Below, in pieces: positions 14,921-28,095 of a stretch of DNA of 64,000 nt (position 1 is its first letter; every line of letters begins with the position of its first letter). The notes beneath the pieces were generated by a model. That model searched no databases. It had not been told where the DNA came from and saw only the letters and a program-made list of their open reading frames with translations. A program made the translations under genes and the position numbers. The DNA comes from Vicinamibacterales bacterium (GTDB lineage: Bacteria > Acidobacteriota > Vicinamibacteria > Vicinamibacterales > UBA2999), in NCBI GenBank assembly GCA_050185275.1, contig JBFWZN010000004.1, positions 320,919 to 384,918 on the forward strand, read 5' to 3'.

Positions 14921-14954
14921 GCTGTCTCCTGTGCACTAGAGCGCGTCATGTGAG

Positions 14955-15051
14955 GCCTCACGTGCCGGTTCAGCCGCGAGCGGCGCTCGCACCCCCGTCG
15001 GCCACCCAGCTCTGCCCGCCCCGCTCGCCGGGCTGCAGCGGCTCGTTGGAC
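14955..15051 (-). repeat. attC (site 16), core site degenerate
   Basis: Minus R'' GTCCAAC ... R' GTGAGGC; internal arms ttcagccgcgagcggcg / cgctcgccgggctgcagcgg resemble site 1. Confidence 0.6.
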
Positions 15052-15081
15052 GGCTGGTCGCGTTCAACGCAACGTTCGGCT

Positions 15082-15939
15082 TCACCGTAGCACGAGCGCC
15101 TCGGTGAGAAACGCTTCAACGCGGCGCGGGAGCTCGACGTGGAAGCCGTCCCGGTCGAAACCATCCGGGTCCGTTGCCGGCGGGAAGTCGGGGCGGCGCA
15201 TCTGCGCCGGGAAAGGCGTGAGGAATGAGTAGTGTCCCGCGCCCGGGACCACATCCAATGTCGCCGTCCCCCGCGTGAGCAGGCCCGCCAGGGCCTGCCG
15301 GATCGCAGCGGGCGGGGTCACGTGGTCCCGCTCGCCAGCAAGGACGAGCAGCGGCACCGATACGTCCGCCAGCGCTCCCGGGGCCATGAACCAGTCGGTC
15401 GCCGGCGCGAGGAGGACCGCCGCGCGGACCCGCGCGTCGGCGCGGGTCGGAATCGGCTGGCCGGAGCGTGACCACGGCCGACCGCCGACGAGGGCGAGCG
15501 CCGTGTAGCCGCCCATCGAGTGTCCGACGACGCAGGCGCGCGCGCCGTCAGCCACCTGGCCCAGGACCGGGTCGGCGAGCACCGCGTCGATCGCGCACGA
15601 CGCGTGCCGCGGGCGATCCAGCGCGGCGCGATCCGTGCCCGAGCGCGAGCGGTCATTCCGGTTATCCCCCGGGTGTTCGAGGCTGACCACGACGTAGCCG
15701 CTGATTGCCAGGTGCGTACCGATCGAGCGATAGAGCAGGTGGGATCCGCCGCCGCCGTGGGAGATCACGCAGGTCGGAAAGCGACCGGGAGCCGGCACCG
15801 CATCAGGCGTCGCCTCGAAGTAGTAGGGGCCGATCATCGTTCCGGTGGACGCCTGGTCGGTCGGGTACTGGACCACAGCCGGAAAGGGCGCGCCCCCCTC
15901 CGAGTCGAGGATCTCGAGCTGGCGGATGCCGGAGTTCAC
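15082..15939 (-). CDS. Alpha/beta hydrolase (dienelactone hydrolase / PAF-acetylhydrolase-like) (cassette 16)
   Basis: GTG start at 15939; nucleophile elbow GHSMGG. Confidence 0.75.
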   Translation of the reverse strand: MNSGIRQLEILDSEGGAPFPAVVQYPTDQASTGTMIGPYYFEATPDAVPAPGRFPTCVISHGGGGSHLLYRSIGTHLAISGYVVVSLEHPGDNRNDRSRSGTDRAALDRPRHASCAIDAVLADPVLGQVADGARACVVGHSMGGYTALALVGGRPWSRSGQPIPTRADARVRAAVLLAPATDWFMAPGALADVSVPLLVLAGERDHVTPPAAIRQALAGLLTRGTATLDVVPGAGHYSFLTPFPAQMRRPDFPPATDPDGFDRDGFHVELPRRVEAFLTEALVLR

Positions 15940-15986
15940 GATTCAGTCACGATCAGGGGTGTGTCGCGGAAGGTGCATGTGGTGAA

Positions 15987-16076
15987 GCGTAACGCCTGGC
16001 GATGAGCCGCGCTCGGAGCGCGGGAACGTGGCGCGGGCGAGCGCCCCCACGCGTAGGCTCCACCGCCTTGTCAGGC
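15987..16076 (-). repeat. attC (site 15), inverse core degenerate
   Basis: Minus R'' GCCTGAC (holds the TGA stop of the HicB remnant) ... R' GTTACGC; 3' arm gcgtaggctccaccgcc resembles subfamily B sites. Confidence 0.6.
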
Positions 16077-16235
16077 ATCGATGCTGATGAACTGACTCGT
16101 AGAGCTTGGCTGAGGGACCGGCTGGCCTCCCTCCCGCATTCCCTCGATGTGAAGTTCGACTGCCTCTCGCATCAGCGACTCCACTTCCTGTTGGCTCTCA
16201 CCCAGGTCACCGTCGACCGGACGGCCAGGATCGAC
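16071..16235 (-). pseudogene. HicB-family antitoxin remnant (N-terminal ~25 aa missing)
   Basis: Own translation: ...PGRPVDGDLGESQQEVESLMREAVELHIEGMREGGQPVPQPSSTSQFISIDA, the HicB/UPF0150 C-terminal pattern; no start for a full-length protein; abuts the stop of ORF 16237..17100 in another frame. Confidence 0.45.
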
Positions 16236-16236
16236 G

Positions 16237-17100
16237 CTATTCTGTGAATGCGGATTCGGCTCTCTGGCGCTTGTCCGGGTCTTGCGTCCCTCTCACGTGA
16301 TTCCATAGCTTTGTCTTCAGGGCATTCGGTACTTCTTTCAAGCCCCCGGGGCGTTGCTTCCTAAACGACCATCCTCCGAACAGGCGCGCAGCTCCCTCCG
16401 TTTGTGCGGAGGTCACGCTGGACAACTCGAAGGCCTCGACGAGGCTCCTGGTCGGATACGCAAGGAGGAGCTTTTCGGTTGCCATCTCGTAGAACGGGAC
16501 GCCTGACCAAGGACCCGCTCCTGAACCAAACCATTCGAGCAGGGCACGAATGCGTTTCGGTTCATCTGGCAGCCCCCGTTCAAGAGCGCCCTCCAGCATT
16601 TCAACATCCACCTCCCCAGGGAGTCGTAAGGCCTCTGCCCAGAGCGGGACGATCGCCTCCGGCATCGCGGCCAGCCATCTGTCCCAGTTGCGCTTCTGCT
16701 GCTCCTTCTGAGCCAGCATCCCTCTGACCTCGTCTCGAGGATCAGACATTCCACGGCTCTCGAACCACGATGCCCACTTCTCTACGTCGCCGATGCACAC
16801 GTCGCTGTCCCACAGCGAACAGCGCACCGTCAGGCCATGGTGGCTCGTCAGCTGTACGGGTTTACCGCGGCCCTCGTATAGATAGATGGCAGGCGAGCCG
16901 ATGCACATGCAGTGCAGCCATTCGTCTGGCGGCTCAAGGACCAGACTCCTCCTCAGATCGTCGATGTCTTTGCGATCGGTCGACTCGAACAGCGTAATCG
17001 CAGTGTCCCTCGGGTCCTCCTTGACCACGATCCTCACTGCCCTGGCCAATACACCGTCGAGCTCCGCGAGAACAACAGGCTTCTCCTTCTGCCTGGTCAT
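16237..17100 (-). CDS. Hypothetical protein (cassette 15)
   Basis: Track ORF trimmed to ATG 17100 with AGGAG 6 nt upstream; no domain recognised. Confidence 0.6.
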   Translation of the reverse strand: MTRQKEKPVVLAELDGVLARAVRIVVKEDPRDTAITLFESTDRKDIDDLRRSLVLEPPDEWLHCMCIGSPAIYLYEGRGKPVQLTSHHGLTVRCSLWDSDVCIGDVEKWASWFESRGMSDPRDEVRGMLAQKEQQKRNWDRWLAAMPEAIVPLWAEALRLPGEVDVEMLEGALERGLPDEPKRIRALLEWFGSGAGPWSGVPFYEMATEKLLLAYPTRSLVEAFELSSVTSAQTEGAARLFGGWSFRKQRPGGLKEVPNALKTKLWNHVRGTQDPDKRQRAESAFTE

Positions 17101-17203
17101 GATGTGCTCCTGGCGAACGCGATGCAGACACACGTGTTGCGGCCCAGCAGGACCGCGGCGTGATCCTATACCAGCCGCCGTGTGGTGCAGCTCCGGGCTA
17201 CTA

Positions 17204-17276
17204 GCCTGACGCCCACGCATCACCAGCGGCGCCTCCACGATCGCGCGAGCGCCGTCTGGTGCATGCGGTGTCAGAC
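17204..17276 (-). repeat. attC (site 14) with compensated GAC/GTC instead of AAC/GTT
   Basis: Minus R'' GTCTGAC (TGA stop of ORF 17271.. inside) ... R' GTCAGGC; arms gacaccgcatgcaccagacggcgc / gcgccgctggtgatgcgtgggcgtc pair well. Confidence 0.6.
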
Positions 17277-17642
17277 AGCTGGTTCGTGCGCTCCACGGAC
17301 ACGTACACGTCCCGGCTCCACGATCCAGAGTTGATGTTCGGCCCACTCTGCGGCCAAGACCGGAAGAACCCGGGCCACCAGCTGAAGCACCTGTCGTCGG
17401 CTGGGCTCGGCCGGTCGAAACACCACGATGCCGACGTACGTGCTCGGCGGATAGGTTCGGATATCGGAGAAATCGAGGTCGAGCGTAAAGAGCACGCGAG
17501 CCTCAGATTGGCAAGCCGCCCCGACCGTGGGATCGTCCGCGCCCGCGAGACCTTCGTCGTGAACGGTGTCGCAGATCCACCCGGCAGCGCGAAGGAGCTC
17601 GGCGGCCTCGAGCGGCACGTTCTCATCGAGCTTCGCGCGCAT
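17271..17642 (-). CDS. DUF5615-family (Mut7-C/PIN-like) putative toxin (cassette 14, gene 2)
   Basis: MRAKLDENVPLEAAELLRAAGW...; 9 nt downstream of a DUF433 gene, the usual pairing. Confidence 0.7.
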   Translation of the reverse strand: MRAKLDENVPLEAAELLRAAGWICDTVHDEGLAGADDPTVGAACQSEARVLFTLDLDFSDIRTYPPSTYVGIVVFRPAEPSRRQVLQLVARVLPVLAAEWAEHQLWIVEPGRVRVRGAHEPAV

Positions 17643-17651
17643 TCCCGGACG

Positions 17652-17879
17652 CTACGCAGGGAGGGGCAGGATCCGCTCTTGCGCTAGGTCGGCTGCATAC
17701 GCCAACGCCGCCTGAATGCCCTCCGCCGTCAGCGAGGGATAGCTCCGGATGAGCTCGTCGGCCGACAGCCCTTCCGCCAGATTCGCCAGGACCACAGCCA
17801 CAGGAATCCGCGTTCCGCGAATGCAGGCCTTGCCATGCAGCACAGCGGGGTCGACCGTGATGTGTTCGCGCCACTCCAT
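17652..17879 (-). CDS. DUF433-family putative antitoxin (cassette 14, gene 1)
   Basis: ITVDPAVLHGKACIRGTRIPVAVVLANLAEG is the DUF433 signature as recalled. Confidence 0.75.
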   Translation of the reverse strand: MEWREHITVDPAVLHGKACIRGTRIPVAVVLANLAEGLSADELIRSYPSLTAEGIQAALAYAADLAQERILPLPA

Positions 17880-17920
17880 GAACGTTTCCCGCTCGAAGGA
17901 TACCCGGAAGCCGTTCAGCT

Positions 17921-17992
17921 GTCTAACGACGCCACATCCGCCGCGCGCCGAAACGCATAACGCGGCGCGTCGGCTGCATTTGGTGGTTAGCC
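17921..17992 (-). repeat. attC (site 13)
   Basis: Minus R'' GGCTAAC ... R' GTTAGAC; 72 bp; plus-strand 3' arm cgcggcgcgtcggctgcatttggtgg (subfamily B). Confidence 0.85.
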
Positions 17993-18018
17993 AGACAGTC
18001 CCTCAGGTGCCGGCTGGC

Positions 18019-18633
18019 CTACGCCGGCGTGGACTGCGGCGGTCGAAGCATCGCCCAAGCCGGCGGTCCCCCTTTGCCGAGAGTCGCCTCCTCAAGGACG
18101 GCGAAGCCAAAGCGTTCGTAGAACGCCAGATTGCGAGGTTCGCTCGTCTCGAGATAGCACGGTAGTGACTCGCGATCGGCCAGGGCGAGCCCCTCGCGAA
18201 TGATTGCCGATCCGATACCCTGGCCGTGCAGTTCGGGATCGACGGCAACACCAAAGAGATACCAATGAGGCCCAGGAACCCGAGCCTTGTGGATCTTGTC
18301 CATCGCTTCGTTGGCCGCCACGAACCGGACGAAAGGCCCTAGCCCCGTGCGCAGCGGCACGCCGAGCATGCCAGCGCGAACCATCCCTGGAATCGTGATC
18401 CCCGGGCCTGGAGGGATCCAGACACATGCGGCCCTCGCGTCATGGGACGCTGCGATCCTTCCGTACCGCATGCCGTATTCGGCGAGAACGCGCATGAGTG
18501 CACGCGCCCCGGCAAGCCGCCCTGCCGCGTCTGGAAACACCCACGTGATCATCGGATCGGGCAAGAACGCACGCGCGAATGTCATGACCGCACGATCCAG
18601 CGAACCGCGGTCAAGCGGCTTGATGTCGGACAT
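18019..18633 (-). CDS. GNAT-family N-acetyltransferase (cassette 13)
   Basis: Block HGQGIGSAIIREGLALAD and C-terminal NLAFYERFGF. Confidence 0.8.
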   Translation of the reverse strand: MSDIKPLDRGSLDRAVMTFARAFLPDPMITWVFPDAAGRLAGARALMRVLAEYGMRYGRIAASHDARAACVWIPPGPGITIPGMVRAGMLGVPLRTGLGPFVRFVAANEAMDKIHKARVPGPHWYLFGVAVDPELHGQGIGSAIIREGLALADRESLPCYLETSEPRNLAFYERFGFAVLEEATLGKGGPPAWAMLRPPQSTPA

Positions 18634-18669
18634 CGAACGGCGCTCCCTTGGACACGTCGACTGTGGTCT

Positions 18670-18753
18670 GGCTAACGCGCAAAATGAGCCCCGCGCGTCG
18701 CGGCCATGATGGCCCAGACACGCGAGCGGGACGGCTCCATGTGGATGTTAGCC
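18670..18753 (-). repeat. attC (site 12)
   Basis: Minus R'' GGCTAAC (TAA stop of ORF 18748.. inside) ... R' GTTAGCC; 84 bp. Confidence 0.8.
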
Positions 18754-19260
18754 GCCGAGTCGTTTGCGAAGTCGAACTTCGAACAGTTCAGATCCGCCCA
18801 GTGTAATCGCCTTTGCGCTGCCGGGCTCGATGGCCAAGCCGATCGACTCGTAGAACGCGATAGCCTGCGCGTTGCTCTTCAACACCCACAGCGTGATCTC
18901 CGAAAGACCGGACGCATTCAAGTGTCTCTCCGCTTCGCGCCAGAGCCGTCGTCCTACGCCTCGGCGCCAGTGTGGAGGGTCCACGTGAACGGCCCAGACC
19001 TCCACGGTTGTCGGCAGGGCGTCCGAATCACGGCTCCGTGCGGCGCTGATCCCACCAAGCACCTGGCTCTCTTCCTCGACCACACAGGTCTCCGAAGCCC
19101 TTTGTTCAAGGTTCTGTCGCCAGAAGCTCTCCCGTTGCTCAACGGACAGCGAGTCCAGGACTGCCGACGAAACGATGCCCTGGTAGGCCACCTGCCACGA
19201 TTGGACGTGAATAGCAGCAATCGCCCGGGCATCTTCCAGTCTTGCTTGCCTAACACCCAT
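18748..19260 (-). CDS. GNAT-family N-acetyltransferase (cassette 12)
   Basis: MGVRQARLEDARAIAAIHVQSW..., block WRRGVGRRLWREAERHL, AIAFYESIGL. Confidence 0.85.
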   Translation of the reverse strand: MGVRQARLEDARAIAAIHVQSWQVAYQGIVSSAVLDSLSVEQRESFWRQNLEQRASETCVVEEESQVLGGISAARSRDSDALPTTVEVWAVHVDPPHWRRGVGRRLWREAERHLNASGLSEITLWVLKSNAQAIAFYESIGLAIEPGSAKAITLGGSELFEVRLRKRLGG

Positions 19261-19274
19261 GTGACTCGAGGTGC

Positions 19275-19346
19275 GGCTACCGCTGCGTTTCAGCCGCGGC
19301 GTCTCATAACCGCCAGACCCCCGACGGCTGCAAACGCCCGTTCAGT
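19275..19346 (-). repeat. attC (site 11), both core heptamers off-consensus
   Basis: Minus R'' ACTGAAC ... R' GGTAGCC; arms gcgtttcagccgcggcg / cgacggctgcaaacgc are typical of subfamily A. Confidence 0.6.
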
Positions 19347-19353
19347 TGCGTAA

Positions 19354-19827
19354 TCATGTGGACCACGCGAAGGGGCGAAACACCTCGATGAAGCACAACA
19401 CGAAGCCAACCGCCGCAACGACAAGGTGCAAGGAGATCCACCCCCAGTTGAGCCGCCACTCGTATAACCTCGGGAACTCTGCCTTCGCGATCTTGTGTGC
19501 TTCCTCGCGGAGAACCTGAGCGCGACCGTTCAGAACGCCCGAATCAAGCTCCTTGCGGATGAGGCTGGCTCTGCGCATGTGATCCTTGAAACGTTCGTAG
19601 TGCTTAGCACTCAGAACTGCTCCAAAAAGTCCAAACAGCGTCAAAGCTACAGTGTAGGGAAGGTCGCGGACATCCACGGACTTGTCTGCGAGCGCCAGAT
19701 TCGCAAGAGCCGCGGTACTGGCAATCACGAAAGCCGTCATCACACTACGTTGGGTCTCGTGATGCCGGCCATGCACACAATTCTCGTTGTAGAGAGCGAG
19801 CCACACTTGGGCTTCTTCGCTTTTCAT
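19354..19827 (-). CDS. Small membrane protein, unknown function (cassette 11)
   Basis: Trimmed to ATG 19827; three hydrophobic segments (AFVIASTAALANLALA, YTVALTLFGLFGAVL, WISLHLVVAAVGFVLCFI). Confidence 0.55.
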   Translation of the reverse strand: MKSEEAQVWLALYNENCVHGRHHETQRSVMTAFVIASTAALANLALADKSVDVRDLPYTVALTLFGLFGAVLSAKHYERFKDHMRRASLIRKELDSGVLNGRAQVLREEAHKIAKAEFPRLYEWRLNWGWISLHLVVAAVGFVLCFIEVFRPFAWST

Positions 19828-19879
19828 GATCGCCTCGGCCAACCAATCGCTGCCTTCGACTCCAGCCCGTCCCTTCTCC

Positions 19880-19939
19880 GCCGAACGGGCCGGTTCAGCG
19901 GCGGCGTCTCGTGCCGTCCGCTGCAACCGGTGGTTATGC
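19880..19939 (-). repeat. attC (site 10), 60 bp
   Basis: Minus R'' GCATAAC ... R' GTTCGGC; arms ccggttcagcggcggc / gccgtccgctgcaaccgg. Confidence 0.7.
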
Positions 19940-20030
19940 GTCTTCGTCGCTCTCCTTCTTCAACCTCCGCCTGGCAGGTTTGTTCTCAACGTCGAGCATG
20001 CCAAGGGCGCACTCCACAAGGACACCGCCC

Positions 20031-20104
20031 AACTAACGACCGCGGTTTAGCCGCGGTGCGCTCAGCATGCACCGGTGCGCCGTCGGCTGCAATCGCTGTT
20101 AGAT
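20031..20104 (-). repeat. attC (site 9)
   Basis: Minus R'' ATCTAAC (TAA stop of ORF 20099.. inside) ... R' GTTAGTT; 74 bp; arms gcggtttagccgcggtgcg / gcgccgtcggctgcaatcgc. Confidence 0.8.
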
Positions 20105-21037
20105 GGCCATTCTCGCTTGGTTTGTGATGCCGAACGGGACGTGCACGGATGGCACGGTTCCGGCCGCGGGGTCGATGTGGCCGATCTGATCGTCAAAGAA
20201 GATGTGAGGCTTGAACTCAGAGAGAATCCTTGTCTTGTCCATACCGCCGAGGAAGAAGGTTTCGTCCACCTCGATGCCCCATGCGCGTAACGTGGTCACC
20301 AGACGTTTATGGGCCGGCGCGTTTCGTGACGTGATGATCGCTGTTCTGATTACCGGGGTATAGCCGTTGTCTTGTTGAGCGCGCGCCAGTTCTCGCTGGT
20401 GTATCTTGCCGATCTCTTCGACCAAGGGCTTCAGAGGCCCTGGGTTATGCGGCTCAAGTGCCTTGAGCGCTTCTGACTGATGAAACCCGCTGAGACCCTC
20501 TATCTGGAAGACGCGTTCCGCTTCGTCGTCGATGATAACGCCGTCGAAGTCGAACGCAACGCGTAACTCACGGTCGTTCGGATCGTCGACGTAGTTCGAC
20601 GCGAGAACACGCCCTGCAGGCAAACCCGCCATCACCGCCTCCTTGACATTGGCCTCATCTGCCGACAGAAACAGACAGGCGTTAAATGACTTCACGTACC
20701 GAAAGGGGTCACGGCCTCGCACAAACGCCGCACGGCTAATTGGCAGGGTATAGTGCTCGATCGAGTTCATGACACGAAGCCCCGTGTCGGGATCGTTCCG
20801 AGAGAGGAGCACGACCTCAACGGGCTCGTCGCTGCGCTCTGGGTCGTTCAGGCTCAACAGCCGCTTGATGAACGGAAATGCGACACCGGGCTGGAGAATC
20901 TCGGCATCACGCGCGCGCTGGTACTCCCGGTACGCTTCTTCACCCTTCGACAGGAAGACCTCGTGGGACTGGCTGAGGTCGAAGAGTGCACTTGATGCGA
21001 TGGCGACGACGCGTTTTTCATGAATCGGGTATGGCAT
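20099..21037 (-). CDS. 5'-nucleotidase, cN-IA-like bacterial family (PF06189-type) (cassette 9)
   Basis: Trimmed to ATG 21037; collinear blocks SRNDPDTGLRVMNSIEHY, ITSRNAPAHKRLVTTLRAWGIEVDETFFLGG, KPHIFFDDQ. Confidence 0.8.
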   Translation of the reverse strand: MPYPIHEKRVVAIASSALFDLSQSHEVFLSKGEEAYREYQRARDAEILQPGVAFPFIKRLLSLNDPERSDEPVEVVLLSRNDPDTGLRVMNSIEHYTLPISRAAFVRGRDPFRYVKSFNACLFLSADEANVKEAVMAGLPAGRVLASNYVDDPNDRELRVAFDFDGVIIDDEAERVFQIEGLSGFHQSEALKALEPHNPGPLKPLVEEIGKIHQRELARAQQDNGYTPVIRTAIITSRNAPAHKRLVTTLRAWGIEVDETFFLGGMDKTRILSEFKPHIFFDDQIGHIDPAAGTVPSVHVPFGITNQARMAI

Positions 21038-21057
21038 CGGCGCGCCAATACTAGTCC

Positions 21058-21130
21058 ACCTAACGCGCCGCTTCAGCCGCGGCGGCTCATGATCGCCCCG
21101 GCCGCTGTCGGCTGCAACCGGATGTTGGGC
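21058..21130 (-). repeat. attC (site 8)
   Basis: Minus R'' GCCCAAC ... R' GTTAGGT; 73 bp; arms ccgcttcagccgcggcgg / ccgctgtcggctgcaaccgg. Confidence 0.85.
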
Positions 21131-21177
21131 AGCCGCCACGATTCAGGCATATCCTGCCGCAGTTCCCGCCCTACGGG

Positions 21178-21699
21178 TCACTTGACGAAGAGCTCCATCG
21201 CCACGTCATCTAGGTATTGGCTTGGTCCGATCTTGATCCGATGCCGCCAACGCCCCATCTCCGTGAAACCCATCCTGAGGTAGAGCGCCTGCGCCGGTTC
21301 GTTCGACGATCGTACGTGAAGCTCGATCTTCTCGACGGTCTGGGCGGCCATTGCCCATTCGATCAATCGACTGAGCAGCTGTCGCCCGACACCCTGACGT
21401 TGCCAGCCTGGGTGAGTTACCAGGGTCACATGCACAACGTGGCGAGTGGCAGCGAGTGGCAGTGGATCGAGTACTCCGTGGCCGACGACTTTCCCCTGCG
21501 TCTCTGCGACGAGATAGCACCCGTTGTCGGCGCGACCGAGCGCCGCGATCTTCCGCGCAAATCCCTCGTCCGTCAGCTCCGCTGGCTGCGACACCAGAAA
21601 GCCAGGCTTCGCCGCAATCGTTCGTTCGGCTTGCGCCAGCACGGACGCGTCCTCGATGCGAGCCGGCCGGATCGAGATTCCTCTGTTCAACGGATTCAC
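21178..21699 (-). CDS. GNAT-family N-acetyltransferase (cassette 8)
   Basis: GTG start; block WQRQGVGRQLLSRLIEWA and ALYLRMGF. Confidence 0.85.
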   Translation of the reverse strand: MNPLNRGISIRPARIEDASVLAQAERTIAAKPGFLVSQPAELTDEGFARKIAALGRADNGCYLVAETQGKVVGHGVLDPLPLAATRHVVHVTLVTHPGWQRQGVGRQLLSRLIEWAMAAQTVEKIELHVRSSNEPAQALYLRMGFTEMGRWRHRIKIGPSQYLDDVAMELFVK

Positions 21700-21716
21700 G
21701 GTTTCACGACTTGTCT

Positions 21717-21788
21717 GCCCAACGTGCCGAATGGGCCGCGCGCCATCGTCGGCTCATGCGGCGCGTCGGCTCCATTTGGAGGTTAGGC
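21717..21788 (-). repeat. attC (site 7)
   Basis: Minus R'' GCCTAAC ... R' GTTGGGC; 72 bp; subfamily B 3' arm gcggcgcgtcggctccatttggagg. Confidence 0.85.
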
Positions 21789-21810
21789 AGCAACACACCC
21801 TGACACCCGC

Positions 21811-22536
21811 CTACACCTTGAGATGCGCGTGAAAGAAGGTTTCGATCCGTCGGCGCGCATCCGCGTTCGCCTGGGCGTCGTATGTCGTGTGTGACCACCG
21901 TGCCAGCGCGGTGAGGATCCACGGACCTTCGCCGCGACCGTGATCGTTCATGAAACCGTGACCGACGCCGGCGTACTCCTTCACGTCGTGCATGATGCCA
22001 TGTGATGTGAGCAGATCCTCAAGTCGCGCGGCGGTGCCCTTCAACGTGGGATCCTTTCCGCCGTAGCTCGCGACGATGGGGCACGCATCGGCGAGGCGCC
22101 GCCAACCGTCTTCGGTCGCCCCACCGTAATTCACAGCTGACGCCCCGTAGCCGTGCCCTGGCGCCAATGCCAGCGCCAACCCACCACCCAGACAGAATCC
22201 AATGACGCCCACGCGCCCCGTGCCCAGTTCGTGCGCCGCGAGCCACGCCTGCACAGCCGCGAGTTCGTCGAATGCAGGCCCACGAGTACCGCGCGCCAAG
22301 TCCCGCATTGTGCGGACGAGACACCGAAGGTGCCCGCCCCAATGGAACAGGTCCGGGGCGGCCGCTAGATAGCCGACGTCCGCGAGCCATCGGGCCTGAT
22401 TGCGCAAGTCCTCGGTCATGCCGAGTGCGTCGTGGACAACGACGACACCTGGCCACGGGCCATCATCGTCTGGTGTCGCCACAAAGGTGGGGATCTCGCC
22501 CCCGGAGCCGCCGGGAATCCTGGAGAGATGGTCCAT
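21811..22536 (-). CDS. Dienelactone hydrolase family protein (cassette 7)
   Basis: ATG 5 nt after core site; GFCLGGG nucleophile motif, C-terminal GVGHGF. Confidence 0.85.
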
Positions 22537-22541
22537 TGTCT

Positions 22542-22630
22542 GCCTAACGCTGGCGGTTCAGCCGCGGCGGCTCTCTTTGGTTGGCTTGGTCACAACCTGC
22601 GCCGCCGTCGGCTGCAACCGCTGGTTAGCC
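22542..22630 (-). repeat. attC (site 6)
   Basis: Minus R'' GGCTAAC ... R' GTTAGGC; 89 bp; the 5' arm GGTT[G]CAGCCG[A]CGGCG has two extra bases relative to its partner, as in classical attC. Confidence 0.9.
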
Positions 22631-23304
22631 AGTCGGCCGCCAACTCGCATGTACGGGGCGAATCGACGGCGCGACTCCTCGAACTGCTCGGTAAACCACA
22701 GCATAGCGTCGGCCCACTCTCTCGACAGCTGCGCCCGATCAGAATCTGGGGCTTCTCGCATCGCATAGAGAGCATGAAGCTGTACGGCCCTCCGATAGAG
22801 TTCCCGCAGGTAGCCGGCCAGATGATCGTCGAACAGGAACAGAGCCTCGTCGGTCTGCCGAGCGAACTCGAAGATTTTATCAAGCTCCAGGCGTCTGCCG
22901 TTCACGGCCTCGCGAAGAAACGCCTGCGTTGCACGATAGGCCGGAATTCGTCGGTCGAAGAGCTCAAGAGAGATGACCGGTCCTCGCGTCGTTTGGCCAC
23001 CGCTATCGGACCAGGTCAACGACGTGGCCATGTGCTCGTAGAGCATTCCGCGGTAAGTCAAGAGTTCATCGACGGTATGTCCCTTGGTCTGCCGAGACTT
23101 GGCGTCGTATCTGGCGTGATGTTTGGTACAGAGCCACGCTGCATTCGCCTCATCCGCGTTCGTCGCATCGCGGTCCACGTGGGCGATCTGACCCTCTTTC
23201 TCTAGCGTATCGCCATCTAAGCCGTAGCAGAGCGCGCACCGTCGCCTGCTGGCGACCAACACCGCGGCTACAACTGCCCCAGAAAACGGCCTTCTATTCG
23301 CCAT
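22558..23304 (-). CDS. HNH-like nuclease-domain protein with uncharacterised C-terminal domain (cassette 6)
   Basis: N-terminus CALC...IAHVDRD...NAAWLCTKHHARYD fits a CxxC/H-N-H zinc-finger nuclease pattern; the ORF reads through R'' and stops inside the attC. Confidence 0.55.
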   Translation of the reverse strand: MANRRPFSGAVVAAVLVASRRRCALCYGLDGDTLEKEGQIAHVDRDATNADEANAAWLCTKHHARYDAKSRQTKGHTVDELLTYRGMLYEHMATSLTWSDSGGQTTRGPVISLELFDRRIPAYRATQAFLREAVNGRRLELDKIFEFARQTDEALFLFDDHLAGYLRELYRRAVQLHALYAMREAPDSDRAQLSREWADAMLWFTEQFEESRRRFAPYMRVGGRLANQRLQPTAAQVVTKPTKESRRG

Positions 23305-23325
23305 CGCGTGATGTGGTCTTGATCT

Positions 23326-23442
23326 GGCTAACGACGCGCCGCGCGACGCCGCGTGATGCGCGGCGCGAGCGCAGAATGAAATGGCGCGCTCGCGACGGCG
23401 CCGCGACGACGTGTCACGGTCCGCTGCAACCGCTGGTTATGC
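23326..23442 (-). repeat. attC (site 5), long (117 bp)
   Basis: Minus R'' GCATAAC ... R' GTTAGCC; GC-rich central palindrome. Confidence 0.8.
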
Positions 23443-23460
23443 GGCATTCGCGATGACCTC

Positions 23461-23916
23461 TCAACCTGACCTGGCACTCTGCGGAAGATAGTTAACCAAC
23501 TTCTCAGGGAACAGGCACTGGCTGCCCTTCACGAATTCGCTCACCGGACGCCACGCCACGTGGTTCGTGACGCCTCCGTCCACAAACGAAGACGTGATCG
23601 TGGGCTCGAGCCCACGCTCCAACAGTTCTGCTTCAAACGCGAAAACAACCTCGTGACCGCGCGCTCCCTCATGGCTATACAGGTTCTCGAGAACGCACAA
23701 CTGCTTGACGCAGCGGACATGCCTTCCGATCTCCTCGAGAACTTCACGCGCGACCGCTTCCTCGGCCGACTCGCCAAACTCGATTGCTCCCCCAAGCGGT
23801 CGCCATCCCTTCACGGCGCCAGCATCGTCTTTCACGGCCATCACGAGCACGTCCGTGCCCTGATAGATGAGCGCGACGGCAATCACTCTGATTCGCTGCG
23901 GAGGACGCCACTGCAT
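23461..23916 (-). CDS. NUDIX hydrolase (cassette 5)
   Basis: Complete Nudix box GAIEFGESAEEAVAREVLEEIG (Gx5Ex7REUxEExGU). Confidence 0.85.
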   Translation of the reverse strand: MQWRPPQRIRVIAVALIYQGTDVLVMAVKDDAGAVKGWRPLGGAIEFGESAEEAVAREVLEEIGRHVRCVKQLCVLENLYSHEGARGHEVVFAFEAELLERGLEPTITSSFVDGGVTNHVAWRPVSEFVKGSQCLFPEKLVNYLPQSARSG

Positions 23917-23986
23917 CAGATCTGAGACTCCATGCGGAATAGTGATTGTGGGCTCCTCACGAAGCTACGCCGACCCCAACCATGAC

Positions 23987-24055
23987 GCATAACGGTAGGC
24001 ATCACCAGCCGCGCGGGACGATCCCGTGCGCGGCCTGGTGCATGCCGCGTTAGGC
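23987..24055 (-). repeat. attC (site 4)
   Basis: Minus R'' GCCTAAC (TAA stop of ORF 24050.. inside) ... R' GTTATGC; arms ggcatcaccagccgcgc / gcgcggcctggtgcatgcc. Confidence 0.85.
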
Positions 24056-24958
24056 ATCTTCTTCGACGCCATCAACGACGGACACCCGCCCCCGCTTCAG
24101 CGCGGTATCAGCAGGGAAGTACTGCGCGTACAACTGCGCGATCCGCCAAGCAATCGAGTTCTTGTTGATCTCGAAGCCGCCTCCGGCAACAAGGATGGGC
24201 AACGGCAGCGAATAGCGCCCGCCGTCGCAGCTTACATACGGAATGCGTCGGAGCACCGTTGTTCCGTAACGTAGCTCGACTTCATAGCTGTGGGCCGACG
24301 GATCCGGAAAGACCGTGGTCCAGGATTCCCGAAACGATGGGTTCAAGGTGGCACCATGCACGACCGTGAACTCCGGAAAGTCCCTGTGATACAGATACGT
24401 CTCGCCACCGACCTTTACCCAGGCATCTGGGTTCTCCAGAAGGCGGTATGCGCGACGAAGCGGTGGCAGTCCGATGCCGAAGCGCTCCCGCCACGCCAGC
24501 TCGGTCGCGGCCTCGGACGCGCACTCTCGGAGAGGACAGTTGGTGTCCCCGATTCGGGTGTACACCACGCCAGCCCTGATGGTCTGGTCTCTATGGGTCT
24601 TGTCGGCTAGCAGGAAGAAGGGCTTATCTGGTCGATTCTCGATCGTGAGAACGTCAATCTCGTGACCATTCAAGGTGTGCGTTGAGATCGCGACTGTCGG
24701 AAGACGATTTAGCCGAGAGGAGCGCAGCAGGTCCTGAATCTCGGCGCCTCGACGGCGATTCTGATCCTCCTCGATGCCGATTATGTCACCGTTGTTGGCT
24801 ACGCCAAACACTAGGAAGCGCCGGCTCTCGGCCCATGCGTTGGTCAAGCACAGAATGTCATGCAGTAACGACAGCGTGTCCTCGTGGTGGACCCGCTTGA
24901 AGTCAAGCCACTCGCACTCGGTTGTTTCGACTAGGGCGTCGATGTCCATGTCCAGCAT
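24050..24958 (-). CDS. AlbA_2 / Schlafen-like putative DNA-binding protein (cassette 4)
   Basis: ATG immediately follows core site GTTAGGC; N-terminal ETTECEWLDFKR resembles the AlbA_2 (PF04326) E..LEFK motif; remainder unassigned. Confidence 0.6.
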   Translation of the reverse strand: MLDMDIDALVETTECEWLDFKRVHHEDTLSLLHDILCLTNAWAESRRFLVFGVANNGDIIGIEEDQNRRRGAEIQDLLRSSRLNRLPTVAISTHTLNGHEIDVLTIENRPDKPFFLLADKTHRDQTIRAGVVYTRIGDTNCPLRECASEAATELAWRERFGIGLPPLRRAYRLLENPDAWVKVGGETYLYHRDFPEFTVVHGATLNPSFRESWTTVFPDPSAHSYEVELRYGTTVLRRIPYVSCDGGRYSLPLPILVAGGGFEINKNSIAWRIAQLYAQYFPADTALKRGRVSVVDGVEEDA

Positions 24959-25030
24959 GCCTAACGACCCCAACTCAGCCGCGCATCGCCACGCGACTCG
25001 CGGCGCGTCGGATGCATTTGGAGGCTAGGC
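24959..25030 (-). repeat. attC (site 3), inverse core mutated
   Basis: Minus R'' GCCTAGC (AAC changed to AGC; provides the TAG stop of ORF 25025..) ... R' GTTAGGC; subfamily B arm. Confidence 0.75.
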
Positions 25031-25579
25031 ATCGGATTCTACCCGTTCGAGAATCAACTGGCTCACTTCATGCGGACGCCACTTGAAGTGATACTCGATT
25101 AGCTCTTCCTCGAGGCCGTCAATGGGCTGAGGCTGAGCCGTGGCCCTGGCAAACAGAGACAGTGTCTGTCGATGGTTAGCGATGGCCTCGCCAGCGGACT
25201 CGAACTCACACCAGCGACCGGGGTGCCACGTGCCGACGCTGCTCAGCACTTTGACGTAGATCGACATGGCGGGCGCGTGCCCGAGCCGCGCGAGCACCTC
25301 GCGCAGGCACACGCCCTCGACGACCACTAGCTCAGTGAGTTCGCCTAGACGCGCACCCAACTCAGGGTACCGGATCCGGTCAAGGTAGCCGCCCTGGTTC
25401 CTTTCCAGGAACTTGTCGACCTCGACATACTCGCACGATACCGCCTGGGCGAGGGCGCTTGCGAGGGTCGATTTCCCCGAGCCGTCCCAGCCGTCAACGG
25501 CGATCAGGCCATGCGGCTCGGTGTCGCGGACGAGCCGGACGACCGTGTCGAGGTCTCTCACGACCGTTGGCGTATTCAC
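25025..25579 (-). CDS. P-loop NTPase / small kinase-like protein (cassette 3)
   Basis: GTG start; Walker A VDGWDGSGKSTLASAL. Confidence 0.7.
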   Translation of the reverse strand: MNTPTVVRDLDTVVRLVRDTEPHGLIAVDGWDGSGKSTLASALAQAVSCEYVEVDKFLERNQGGYLDRIRYPELGARLGELTELVVVEGVCLREVLARLGHAPAMSIYVKVLSSVGTWHPGRWCEFESAGEAIANHRQTLSLFARATAQPQPIDGLEEELIEYHFKWRPHEVSQLILERVESDA

Positions 25580-25596
25580 TCGTGTGCGTTCCGTAT

Positions 25597-25671
25597 GCCT
25601 AACGACCGCAGTTCAGCCGCGGCGCGCTCAGGATGCCACCGCGCGCCGTCGGCTGCAACTGCTGGTTAGCC
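25597..25671 (-). repeat. attC (site 2)
   Basis: Minus R'' GGCTAAC (TAA stop inside) ... R' GTTAGGC; 75 bp; arms gcagttcagccgcggcgcg / cgcgccgtcggctgcaactgc. Confidence 0.9.
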
Positions 25672-26538
25672 GGCATCGTTCAAGACCTGAATTCGACCTG
25701 TGCTCAGTTGGTAGGCGAAAGTCTCCATCAAGAAGTCAGCGAGTGTTTTGGCTGCGTTTACGGCGAGCCTCGCGTGGTGCCGTTCCGGCCGATAGCTCCG
25801 GGCGTGAGCATCGCCCATCTTGTTCCGCATGGGTGCGAGGCCGGAGACGATGCTCGACAGACCGGCCAATACCTGCCGCAGGCTGTCGGCGATGTCGGTT
25901 CTTGCGGGATCGAGGTTGAGTAGCTTCTGGACACGTTTGTAGAGCCTTGGCAGATCGCCGTCGTACGCCGGTGGCTGCTGGACCAGCCGGGCTTCGATGG
26001 CAATCAGGACGGCCTCGACCAGCGAGCGTGCATTCGTTATGGCTCCATCGTAGTCGCCGTCGCGAAGCTTGCGGTCGCACTTCGACAACTGCTCGTCGAT
26101 AAACTCGTGCGATGTGGGATCAAGGTGGCTGAGCTTCGCCTCAACGGCTACTAGCTGCTCGCCCAGACGGCGCAAGCGATAGTGGCCCGCGCTGAGTACG
26201 AGCTCAAGGCCGTCGTACGCCAGGTACTTGTTGAGGTATTCGACCGCGCTCGACGCTTCAAACGGTGTATCGAAGAACCGCGGTGGGTATACCGAGCCCT
26301 CAATTGCGTCGGTCAGCTGGGGCGTCTCGTTTAGCTGCTCGAGCTTGGCCTCCGCGTACGCCCACCTCGACGGAAATCCTTGGCCGTACGTTTCGTTGAA
26401 GCCGAACTCGTTGAAGAACTCGACCAGCTTCGGGCCGCTCAGGTAGGGCGCCAGCGGCCCGGCGTTCGTGTCGAACTTGTCGCCCGTAATGACGTGCTGG
26501 ATGGCGGAGATAGTGCGCTTCGAGATCTTGGGCGACAC
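25666..26538 (-). CDS. Abi_C / HEPN-domain abortive-infection-like protein (cassette 2)
   Basis: GTG start; C-terminal LAPMRNKMGDAHARSY...HHARLAVNAAKTLADFL = Rx6H HEPN-type motif of the Abi_C (hypoth_ymh-like) domain; N-terminal ~150 aa unassigned. Confidence 0.7.
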   Translation of the reverse strand: MSPKISKRTISAIQHVITGDKFDTNAGPLAPYLSGPKLVEFFNEFGFNETYGQGFPSRWAYAEAKLEQLNETPQLTDAIEGSVYPPRFFDTPFEASSAVEYLNKYLAYDGLELVLSAGHYRLRRLGEQLVAVEAKLSHLDPTSHEFIDEQLSKCDRKLRDGDYDGAITNARSLVEAVLIAIEARLVQQPPAYDGDLPRLYKRVQKLLNLDPARTDIADSLRQVLAGLSSIVSGLAPMRNKMGDAHARSYRPERHHARLAVNAAKTLADFLMETFAYQLSTGRIQVLNDAG

Positions 26539-26573
26539 GGATCAGGCTTCGCGGGCTAAGGCGCTCGTTGTCC

Positions 26574-26675
26574 GGCTAACGTTCTGCCGCTCAGCCGCGA
26601 GCGGCGGGGTCGAAGTGTACCGCACCGGCGACCCGCGTACGCCCGCCGCTCGTCGGCTGCAGCGGCGGGTTAGGC
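26574..26675 (-). repeat. attC (site 1, integrase-proximal)
   Basis: Minus R'' GCCTAAC (TAA stop inside) ... R' GTTAGCC; 102 bp. Confidence 0.85.
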
Positions 26676-27134
26676 GTCCGCACGCAACGCGACCCGATAG
26701 CGGCACTTGCGCCGCTCGCCCTCGAGGTACATGTCGGAGTCCGGTGGAAGGTCCACTGTCTCGACGAGTTCCGCGCCGGCGAGCTCGCAGGTTCGCCTGG
26801 ACGCCCAGTTGTCCGGGTTGCACGTGATCCACAACTCGGTCATGCCGTGCGCGCGCGCGAGCGGCAGCAGCAGTCGCAGGCTGCGCGACGCGAAGTGGTG
26901 GCCACGATGCGCCGGGCGCACCCCGTACGCAATCTGACCGCCGACGTTCACCATGGCAGGCGTCGCGCCGAGCCGGAACTCGATGTCGCCGGCGACCTCG
27001 CCCGCGACGACTAGGTCGAAGCGATAGGCGGGCACCCACGCTCTCGCGGCATCCCCCGGGAATCGCTCTCGCAGACGCAGGTGCAACTCGCCATCGAGAA
27101 GCGTGCCTGGGTCGCGAAACTCGGTACTGATCAT
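26670..27134 (-). CDS. GNAT-family N-acetyltransferase (cassette 1)
   Basis: ATG 7 nt after the first GTTAGGC junction; HRGHHFASRSLRLLLPLARAHG and WASRRTCELAGAELVE fit a GNAT core. Confidence 0.75.
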   Translation of the reverse strand: MISTEFRDPGTLLDGELHLRLRERFPGDAARAWVPAYRFDLVVAGEVAGDIEFRLGATPAMVNVGGQIAYGVRPAHRGHHFASRSLRLLLPLARAHGMTELWITCNPDNWASRRTCELAGAELVETVDLPPDSDMYLEGERRKCRYRVALRADA

Positions 27135-27141
27135 CCCGTGC

Positions 27142-27448
27142 GCCTAACTACTTACTAACTGGACGTCCGGTACGTCCCCTCCCAGGCTTCGCCCCCCTGA
27201 GCTACACCGCGTGCCCATCGGCCGCAAGCTGTTGAGTGGGCGGAGTCTAGCACTCCGAAGTGGGAGCGACAACGGATTCAGTCACCGCGGCGCGGTGAGC
27301 CGGCCATAGCTGCGGGGCCGGTCAGGCGTATGAGGGAGCTGGTGTGGGGCGTCTTCAGGCGGAAGTACCAGCCGGAGAAGGGATTAGGGCTTGAGAAGGT
27401 CGTATCGGGAGGATGTGTATACCTGCGAAGCCCGCGCGGTATAGCGGG
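27142..27448 (-). other. Candidate attI / cassette-promoter region (non-coding spacer between intI remnant and first cassette)
   Basis: Minus strand ends ...CCAGTTAGTAAGTAGTTAGGC|gcacgggATG; no credible ORF; several short hairpins (e.g. ggacgt-ccggt-acgtcc at 27161..27177). Confidence 0.4.
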
Positions 27449-27790
27449 TCAGAGCCGGTCTGCGGGGCTTCGCACGCCTAATCCACCCCGGTTCAGAACG
27501 TGGGTGTAGATCATCGTGGTGCTGACGTCGGCGTGACCGAGCAATTCCTGCACCGTCCTAATGTCGTAGCCGTCCTCGAGCAGGTGCGTGGCGAACGAGT
27601 GTCGAAACGTGTGGCAACTCGCCCGCGCCGCGATGCCGGCCTGCCGCACCGCCCGCATCAGCCTCGCCGGTGCATGCCGTGATCGCCCGTCACGCGGAGC
27701 CGCCCCTACTCGCGGCGCCGGCGACAGGGTACGAGCGTCGTCAGGACTTCCGGCGTGCGGAGCCGGAGGCTCATGGGCCGGCCGGCGGGG
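27449..27790 (-). pseudogene. intI: Integron integrase (intI) C-terminal remnant
   Basis: Last 72 aa [69 protein letters not shown] carry tyrosine-recombinase box II (HxxR, LLGH, catalytic Y) plus the IntI-type tail GVRSPxDxL; upstream similarity fades; the next gene ends at 28152, so no room for the N-terminal ~200 aa. Confidence 0.85.
27654..27785. repeat. Direct repeat unit 1 (period 243 bp) overlapping the intI remnant
   Basis: cgcatcagcctcgccggtgcatgccgtgatcgcccgtcacgcgga...cggcgtgcggagccggaggc recurs at 27897 with a few substitutions. Confidence 0.85.
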
Positions 27791-27896
27791 CGCGGCCGTC
27801 TCACGGACCGACTGCGACGCACGCCGACACGGCTCGCCTGAAGTCGTGGCGACGCGACGACCCGCCGCGAGTCCGTGCCCCACGATCCGTGACGCT

Positions 27897-28028
27897 CGCA
27901 TCAGCCTCGCCGGTGCGTGCCGTGATCGACCGTCGCGCGGATCCGCCCCTACTCGCGGCGCCAGCGGCAGGGTACGAGCGTCGCCAGGACTTCCGGCGTG
28001 CGGAGCCGGAGGCCCGTGGGGCGGCCGC
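27897..28028. repeat. Direct repeat unit 2 (copy of 27654..27785)
   Basis: Near-identical ~130 bp; encodes a second ...[35 protein letters not shown] segment in the same frame. Confidence 0.85.
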
Positions 28029-28095
28029 GCCCCGCCGGCCGGGGGCAGCAGCGGAAGGCGCATCTGCCGGCTGCGAACGGAGGTCCCGGCGGCGT

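Follow-up and report, generated by a model that had tools for sequence, protein, structure and literature searches.

The second cassette of an integron array in a 64,000-nucleotide stretch of a Vicinamibacterales genome (contig JBFWZN010000004.1 of assembly GCA_050185275.1, positions 320,919 to 384,918; this whole stretch is hereafter the window) carries a single gene for a member of the AbiJ/Abi_C abortive-infection family, as identified by the Abi_C profile, the catalytic motif, the fold, the AbiJ model of PADLOC and the single-gene organisation. We consider it likely that this is a defence gene housed in a cassette without a promoter, and that its N-terminal domain gates a HEPN ribonuclease (RNase) that aborts infection. 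The gene is a bona fide mobile cassette whose boundaries are placed at single-base-pair precision and which recurs in four or more different array contexts, and it is a clean instance, from beyond Vibrio, of AbiJ/Abi_C, a single-gene defence already known, being carried by an integron cassette. No new kind of system emerges from it, the AbiJ/Abi_C family being known, and the stockpiling of defence genes by integrons has already been published, with a validated Abi_C cassette (Taranis, below) as precedent; the present cassette supports this recent view of integrons as defence-gene libraries. At 873 bp and one gene, it is also a compact candidate for learning what the widespread AbiJ-NTD3/Stk2 N-terminal domain recognises. 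Coordinates of all features are collected in Table 1.

Gene and domains

A preliminary description, made from the letters of the window, had placed an open reading frame (ORF) here and quoted the motifs RN..G.AH and HHA.LAVN. The frame is present exactly as given there, on the minus strand and encoding 290 residues, and both motifs can be read directly off the sequence (RNKMGDAH, and HHARLAVN at residues 254-261), as can GPKLVEFFNEFGFNETYGQGFPSRW at residues 35-59. DNA of 69.5% GC, the content of this window, yields long ORFs by chance, and other long ORFs overlap the frame on both strands. We judge it to be a genuine gene and not a chance ORF of GC-rich DNA because of its Abi_C score, its 1,595 homologues (best identity 95%, nearly all of about 290 residues and aligning end to end), a ratio of nonsynonymous to synonymous substitution rates of 0.11-0.13 against two orthologous cassettes (83% and 94% DNA identity), a GTG start kept in the three related contigs L001, L007 and L008, and a GC fraction of 0.78 at third versus 0.41 at second codon positions. 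The gene is thus under strong purifying selection, with its catalytic motif intact. More than 1,500 of the homologues are full length, under the NCBI name "abortive infection family protein"; no NCBIfam model matches the 290-residue protein, and a search of solved structures by sequence gave no relevant match.

The C-terminal half had been described as a HEPN domain of the Abi_C type, and both the HEPN-profile match, whose absence was named there as refuting, and the PADLOC search suggested there bear it out. Pfam Abi_C (PF14355) is matched with 78 bits against a cut-off of 24 (6.1e-22; residues 197-271, profile positions 1-82 of 83), as it is by all 66 of the aligned homologues, and the PADLOC AbiJ model PDLC02347 is matched at 2.4e-30 in two stretches (positions 19-66 and 104-275 of 281), with the HEPN half alone reaching 1.4e-24 over positions 146-276. 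Across the 66 homologues R238, N239, D243 and H245 are invariant, together with H255, N261 and the first-helix residues G165, T168, N169, R171 and E175, so that the motif has the form Rx4-6H with a polar residue (N239) after the arginine. An AlphaFold2 model of the whole protein, built from the 66-homologue alignment (mean predicted local distance difference test, pLDDT, 86.7), has helices in this half at residues 141-159, 163-185, 196-206, 218-237 and 253-279, with the Rx6H motif in the loop between the last two. The top three Foldseek matches in the PDB are HEPN structures (1o3u, 1ufb and 2hsb; probability 1.0, target-normalised TM score 0.58-0.75), and further HEPN entries, 4nqf and sacsin 3o10, stand lower in the list. 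Residues 141-279 are a HEPN domain of the Abi_C/AbiJ type, all-helical in the model and with the motif between its last two long helices.

The N-terminal half, which the preliminary description could not place, appears from sequence comparison to be a divergent domain of the AbiJ-NTD3 type (NTD, N-terminal domain). Structure prediction, proposed there for this half, was run on residues 1-125 and gave a confident fold (pLDDT 92.6, predicted TM score 0.85; six helices and a beta-hairpin), yet one that resembles neither a solved structure nor a predicted viral one, as the fold search against the PDB and BFVD returned no match (best E 0.31 and 0.19, TM score <0.3). A winged-helix-like reading of the domain, drawn from these faint fold matches, was judged not credible. 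The conserved core lies at residues 30-59 (APYxSGPxLVxFFNxxG..YGxGFPSRW), and within the family mean pairwise identity is 47% for the N-terminal domain versus 64% for the HEPN domain, with residues 30-60 strongly conserved. The linker between the two domains has the highest column entropy in the alignment bar the C-terminal tail.

Sequence comparisons point to the NTD3 type. The domain matches positions 8-71 of the PADLOC Stk2 model at 3.2e-11 (up to 4-132 in homologues); Stk2, the abortive-infection Ser/Thr kinase of Staphylococcus epidermidis, which responds to the phage protein PacK, has this N-terminal domain in common with our protein but ends in a protein kinase effector, not a HEPN RNase. 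An exhaustive profile search with the domain gave 907 representative proteins, and its relatives include one that passes the Pfam gathering score for AbiJ_NTD3 (P0254; PF18860, 35.7 bits versus 32.5), one with a DpnII-MboI restriction-nuclease domain after the shared domain (P0247) and one with a TIR domain after it and about 125 extra residues before it (P0323). Anantharaman et al. (2013, PMC3710099) describe AbiJ-NTD3 as an alpha-plus-beta domain of about 140 residues that occurs joined to the HEPN domains of AbiJ, to kinases, to TIR domains and to nucleases of the restriction type, and because the fusion partners that we recovered equal this set, we favour NTD3 as the type. The assignment holds at the family level only: since the protein's own score lies below the Pfam gathering threshold and only some relatives pass, with AbiJ_NTD3 sub-threshold in 28 of the 66 family members, it would be a divergent NTD3 branch. 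An NTD1 affiliation, for which a similar secondary structure is predicted, keeps some residual probability. Two PHROG families (290 and 501 positions) are also matched at their N-termini, in P0362 (315 residues) the shared domain stands at the C-terminal end, and the profile search of a 5.8-billion-protein database returned mostly gene fragments from short contigs that say little on architectures. Sensor and antitoxin roles have been proposed for AbiJ N-terminal domains (PMC3710099), so that a sensor role for this one is a published hypothesis that would extend to it by analogy. A 2026 survey counted 510 NTD3 plus Abi_C proteins among 2,815 Abi_C proteins (PMC13590631), making this the commonest annotated N-terminal-domain architecture in Abi_C proteins after those without an annotated NTD.

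Comparison with characterised relatives revealed both shared and differing features. AbiJ itself (Abi-859, plasmid pND859 of Lactococcus lactis) is likewise a single protein of about 280-290 residues, with an N-terminal domain and then an Abi_C HEPN domain with Rx6H, and is likewise carried on a mobile element; it differs in coming from a dairy plasmid, whereas our gene is an integron cassette in a GC-rich environmental bacterium, and the N-terminal half of our protein resembles the lactococcal-type model weakly. The mutations by which phages escape lactococcal AbiJ lie in a single-strand annealing protein, and AbiJ is also evaded by AbiA escape mutants in that same gene and in one for a Holliday-junction resolvase (PMC13064643). 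SadR of Staphylococcus aureus, an Abi_C protein, degrades single-stranded RNA and total RNA but not DNA or double-stranded RNA, is an apparent dimer, and blocks phages and plasmids (Nat Commun 2026, PMC13590631). It supplies the only direct biochemical evidence for the Abi_C domain, and the RNase activity of our protein is predicted by analogy with it. SadR is also a single-gene Abi_C defence (266 residues) whose motif reads R, polar residue, five residues, H, but it has another N-terminal region (the classes of that paper being no NTD, NTD3, NTD4, NTD5 and Sdh5) and lies beside rlmH/SCCmec, not in an integron. Taranis, from a cassette of the Vibrio cholerae superintegron, is an Abi_C protein that is anti-phage by experiment (Darracq et al., bioRxiv 10.1101/2024.07.02.601686) and, like ours, comes from a single integron cassette; its N-terminus is distantly related to AbiJ_NTD5 and not to the NTD3/Stk2 type suggested here, and its host phylum and integron type are other than ours, where intI runs in the cassette direction.

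Cassette boundaries, mobility and genomic settings

The gene was said in the preliminary description to occupy the second cassette from attI, and indeed one GNAT cassette separates it from the attI junction, a GTTAGGC at 27142-27148 that stands 7 nt before the GNAT ATG. The same description expected expression to be highest at this second position; with the usual integron promoter it is the first cassette, not the second, that is nearest. Our cassette ends within the G|TT of GTTAGCC (26576-26582) on one side and of GTTAGGC (25597-25603) on the other, and has a GC content of 61.9% against 69.5% for the window. Folded as DNA, its attC reaches -31.9 kcal/mol (z = -4.8) and shows bulges of one base on the R''/L'' arm; it scores 84.7 bits on the minus strand versus 26 on the plus strand with covariance model R1, which was built from ten aligned candidate attC sites and is biased to this lineage. 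The model finds the 10 training sites and 6 untrained ones at 14953-26677, with far higher scores on the minus strand, and compensatory changes occur at 9 of the 15 stem pairs in the ten-site alignment. The attC sites of the array share the consensus ..AACC.GCGGTTGCAGCCGACGG...CCGCGGCTGAA.CG..CGTTAGGC.

Mobility of the cassette is evident from its copies elsewhere. On a forest-soil contig (L001) homology spans 26582-25596 and stops there (83% DNA identity over 991 nt, 88% for the protein), the cassette being the first after a genuine integron integrase. Two contigs of metagenome-assembled genomes (MAGs; L007 and L008) hold a 92.7%-identical copy deep in otherwise different arrays, with attC on both sides, and in L007 the homology covers 26599-25590 between unrelated flanks. 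A variant of 98% identity, from wastewater and sludge assemblies, runs into unrelated sequence at 26580, and distant homologues in L039 (Acidobacteriota) and L062 (Syntrophaceae) have an attC-like site directly after the gene. The closest cassettes lie on short MAG contigs labelled Gemmatimonadetes and Acidobacteria, labels of a sort that is unreliable for integron arrays. L007 and L008 themselves were placed by binning in two phyla (Gemmatimonadetes RBC101, Acidobacteria RBC068) yet share the same cassette stretch with identical attC scores; either the binning is at fault or the two have a segment of an integron in common. Contig joints between attC sites were considered as excision events and rejected, their sides being only 20-33 nt and arising from attC repeats in assembly graphs.

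Beyond integrons, the family is patchily spread over Planctomycetota, Cyanobacteria, Acidobacteriota, Myxococcota, Verrucomicrobiota, Desulfobacterota and Proteobacteria, among other phyla, and homologues are found on 189 plasmids (including Acinetobacter plasmids of 5-11 kb) and are almost absent from phage genomes. No neighbour gene is conserved, as the flanks differ between the window and L001, L007, L003, L005, L087, L089, L092 and L093. The homologue in L003 accompanies an Eco57I/BsuBI restriction-modification pair and a DUF4062 protein; in Allorhodopirellula solitaria (L092, 2785-6788) it is divergent to a tyrosine recombinase and stands beside it and a DUF2326/MC6/CTD10 trio; L093 holds an island with CHAT, helix-turn-helix and ImuA-like genes, and L089 an island of small genes of no known function. 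L005 and L092 were rejected as integrons, since their integrases align with IntI over the generic catalytic region only.

To compare near with more distant surroundings, two sets of 145 ORFs, at most 2.5 kb and 4.5-8 kb from 71 homologues, were searched with PADLOC (E <= 1e-5). The near ORFs match 353 models and the far ORFs 95, mostly of one kinase family, a ratio to be read qualitatively as it counts PADLOC models, many of them redundant, and not proteins. Near matches include type IIG restriction-modification (5.8e-97), AbiEii (1.6e-81), GajA (2.8e-75), type I and II methyltransferases, AriA and SduA. A placement of homologues mainly in housekeeping contexts, which the preliminary description had named as evidence that would speak against defence, is disfavoured by this crude comparison, and housekeeping synteny is absent. 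Its proposal of a single-gene abortive-infection candidate is supported by the Abi_C and AbiJ matches, by the HEPN fold match, by the one ORF per cassette, by the lack of a conserved neighbour and by these contexts of homologues, which include plasmids, integron cassettes and the vicinity of restriction-modification, AbiE, Gabija and PARIS genes.

Table 1. Features of the cassette array and of the AbiJ-family gene (positions in the window).
Feature	Position	Strand	Details
AbiJ-family gene	25666..26538	minus	290 aa, GTG start; TAA stop within attC R'' box
N-terminal domain (aa 1-125), putative AbiJ-NTD3/Stk2-N type	26164..26538	minus	AlphaFold2, PADLOC Stk2, Pfam in relatives
Inter-domain linker (aa 126-140)	26119..26163	minus	variable, pLDDT 62-73
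HEPN domain, Abi_C/AbiJ type (aa 141-279)	25702..26118	minus	Pfam, PADLOC, Foldseek
Predicted catalytic motif R238-N-K-M-G-D-A-H245 (Rx6H)	25804..25827	minus	homologue alignment
Integron cassette 2, 979 bp	25603..26581	minus	43-nt leader, single ORF, attC
attC of cassette 2 (R'' GGCTAAC ... R' GTTAGGC)	25597..25671	minus	fold and covariance model
Cassette 1 attC	26574..26675	minus	R' box is the 5' boundary of cassette 2; 66.3 bits
Cassette 1, GNAT acetyltransferase (ORF 26670-27134)	26582..27147	minus	Pfam Acetyltransf_3, Acetyltransf_1
Presumed attI region	27149..27448	minus	by position only, between intI stop codon and first cassette
Integron integrase remnant, C-terminal 75-110 codons	27449..27760	minus	Pfam Phage_integrase 6.6e-20
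Whole cassette array	14953..27148	minus	16 attC sites, all on the minus strand

Proposed mode of action and rival explanations

We propose that the protein would act as a gated RNase. R238 and H245 would form the active site, probably across a homodimer interface, of an RNase of the metal-independent type, and the N-terminal AbiJ-NTD3-type domain would be a separable recognition or regulatory module, common to Stk2 kinase, TIR and nuclease effectors, that holds the RNase silent in the uninfected cell. A cue from phage (or plasmid) replication, perhaps a protein of replication or recombination or the nucleic acid that it yields, would engage the N-terminal domain, and the freed HEPN domain would then cut single-stranded cellular and phage RNA, such that translation stops and the infection aborts. 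The RNase activity, the anti-phage and anti-plasmid phenotypes and the escape mutations that shape this proposal come from the literature on relatives and would apply here by analogy. Autoinhibition, the identity of the trigger, dimer formation and activity in the host are what we infer on top of these, and the trigger and the autoinhibition are the weakest links.

Several observations weigh against this proposal. For the HEPN fold, the Foldseek E-values are weak (0.02-0.2) despite the probability of 1.0, and for the N-terminal half, the domain alone matches the PADLOC AbiJ model (positions 19-66) at only E 0.0023 and Pfam AbiJ_NTD3 is not reported for the 290-residue protein at E <= 1. That domain is also fairly conserved, at the 47% identity given above, which would be unexpected for a domain chasing fast-evolving phage proteins. 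The near/far comparison of neighbourhoods is, as said, qualitative. Finally, the array adjoins only an intI remnant and not a functional intI with attI, a scan of 25500-27700, attI region included, found no sigma-70-like promoter, and a look for RNA-seq runs with the gene gave none.

In a bolder version of the sensing step, which we hold to be unlikely, the NTD3/Stk2-type domain may have a fold of a new kind and respond to a single conserved cue of infection, not to individual phage proteins. The near-identical cassette on contigs assigned to different phyla would then be an immune gene of the plug-in kind, independent of its host, that passes between the integrons of soil and wastewater bacteria only distantly related to each other. 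This version rests on the lack of a matching solved structure, on the conserved, pocket-like core (APY..GP.LV.FFN...YG.GFPSRW) and on the swappable effectors (HEPN, kinase, TIR and nuclease), and the candidate cue would be a product of phage recombination or replication.

Of the explanations that compete with gated abortive infection, the one that survives best, although we find it unlikely, is that the protein mainly excludes plasmids and other mobile DNA, its RNase firing on incoming DNA or transcripts and preventing establishment while the cell stays alive. Plasmid transformation and phage infection are both lowered by SadR, the one Abi_C protein that has been characterised biochemically, and the many plasmids that carry homologues, the small Acinetobacter ones included, are places where excluding competitors would pay. 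Plasmid exclusion is, however, compatible with phage defence and the sequence does not separate the two roles, and it was phage phenotypes that defined lactococcal AbiJ as well as Taranis.

The intI remnant, the undetected promoter and the missing RNA run would also suit a silent or non-defence passenger, either unexpressed in a decayed integron or an RNA-metabolism enzyme without a role in conflict, and two of about ten contexts inspected individually (L002 and L087) show no obvious defence or mobile neighbours. Strong purifying selection on a gene with an intact catalytic motif argues against such a passenger, as does the patchy multi-phylum spread on plasmids, in cassettes and in defence islands with no housekeeping synteny, and we regard it as quite improbable, more so than plasmid exclusion.

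Least probable of all is an array-stabilising toxin, with the N-terminal domain or some undetected RNA as its antitoxin: sedentary integrons commonly contain toxin-antitoxin cassettes and HEPN proteins are frequent toxins in type II (HEPN-MNT) and type III (AbiV, AbiF) systems, but the cassette has no second ORF or MNT partner and only 43 nt upstream of the start, Rfam gives no family match, 25400-27500 holds no tandem repeats but one inside the GNAT gene, the neighbouring cassettes vary between arrays, and a single stable polypeptide that joins toxin and antitoxin makes post-segregational killing impossible.

Integrase remnant and other cassettes

The integron itself is decayed. When the IntI of L001 was used as a tblastn query, only its residues 122-231 aligned, and residues 1-121 have no counterpart anywhere in the window. 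Because only the last 75-110 codons of intI remain, the array is likely immobile, probably so unless an integrase acts in trans, and the identity of the cassette is unaffected. The remnant lies on the cassette strand, as intI does in L001, which is the less common arrangement among integrons. A terminator scan of 25500-27700 gave a single terminator-like match, at chance level.

Two observations concern the integrase end of the array. A 243-bp tandem duplication lies beside the intI remnant (27650-27784 and 27893-28027, 92% identical, with internal inverted repeats), and in the landfill metagenome that holds the window, read depth is 100-137 at 27872-28045 versus about 20 around it; the duplicated piece resembles an element present in many copies, possibly a small mobile one that is non-autonomous. 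At its 3' end (27350-27700), intI likewise has a depth of 118-194 in landfill runs versus about 20 for the adjoining cassettes, and from this high intI depth it follows that many related integrons of the same orientation coexist in the landfill community.

Further along the array, all on the minus strand, cassette 3 (25025-25579) encodes a small P-loop kinase-like protein in which only the Walker A region matches shikimate or nucleotide kinases. Cassette 4 (24050-24973) encodes a Schlafen/AlbA_2-domain protein matching the PADLOC candidate family PDC-S50 at 2.3e-67; its true start is probably the ATG that follows immediately on the GTTAGGC core site (24959-24965), and the array would have in it another cassette of the defence type, two places beyond the AbiJ-family gene. 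Cassette 5 (23461-23916) encodes a NUDIX hydrolase with a weak match to PDC-S07 (7e-9), and cassettes 2-5 could form a cluster of conflict-related genes near attI. Cassette 6 (22558-23304) encodes a 248-residue protein of no Pfam or PADLOC family, whose N-terminus shows an HNH-like Cys/His pattern and faintly matches a model for a restriction endonuclease of phosphorothioate DNA (E 0.09). The remaining content of the array includes at least four GNAT cassettes, a dienelactone hydrolase, an alpha/beta hydrolase and a PF06189 5'-nucleotidase cassette gene (20099-21139, 3.8e-125).

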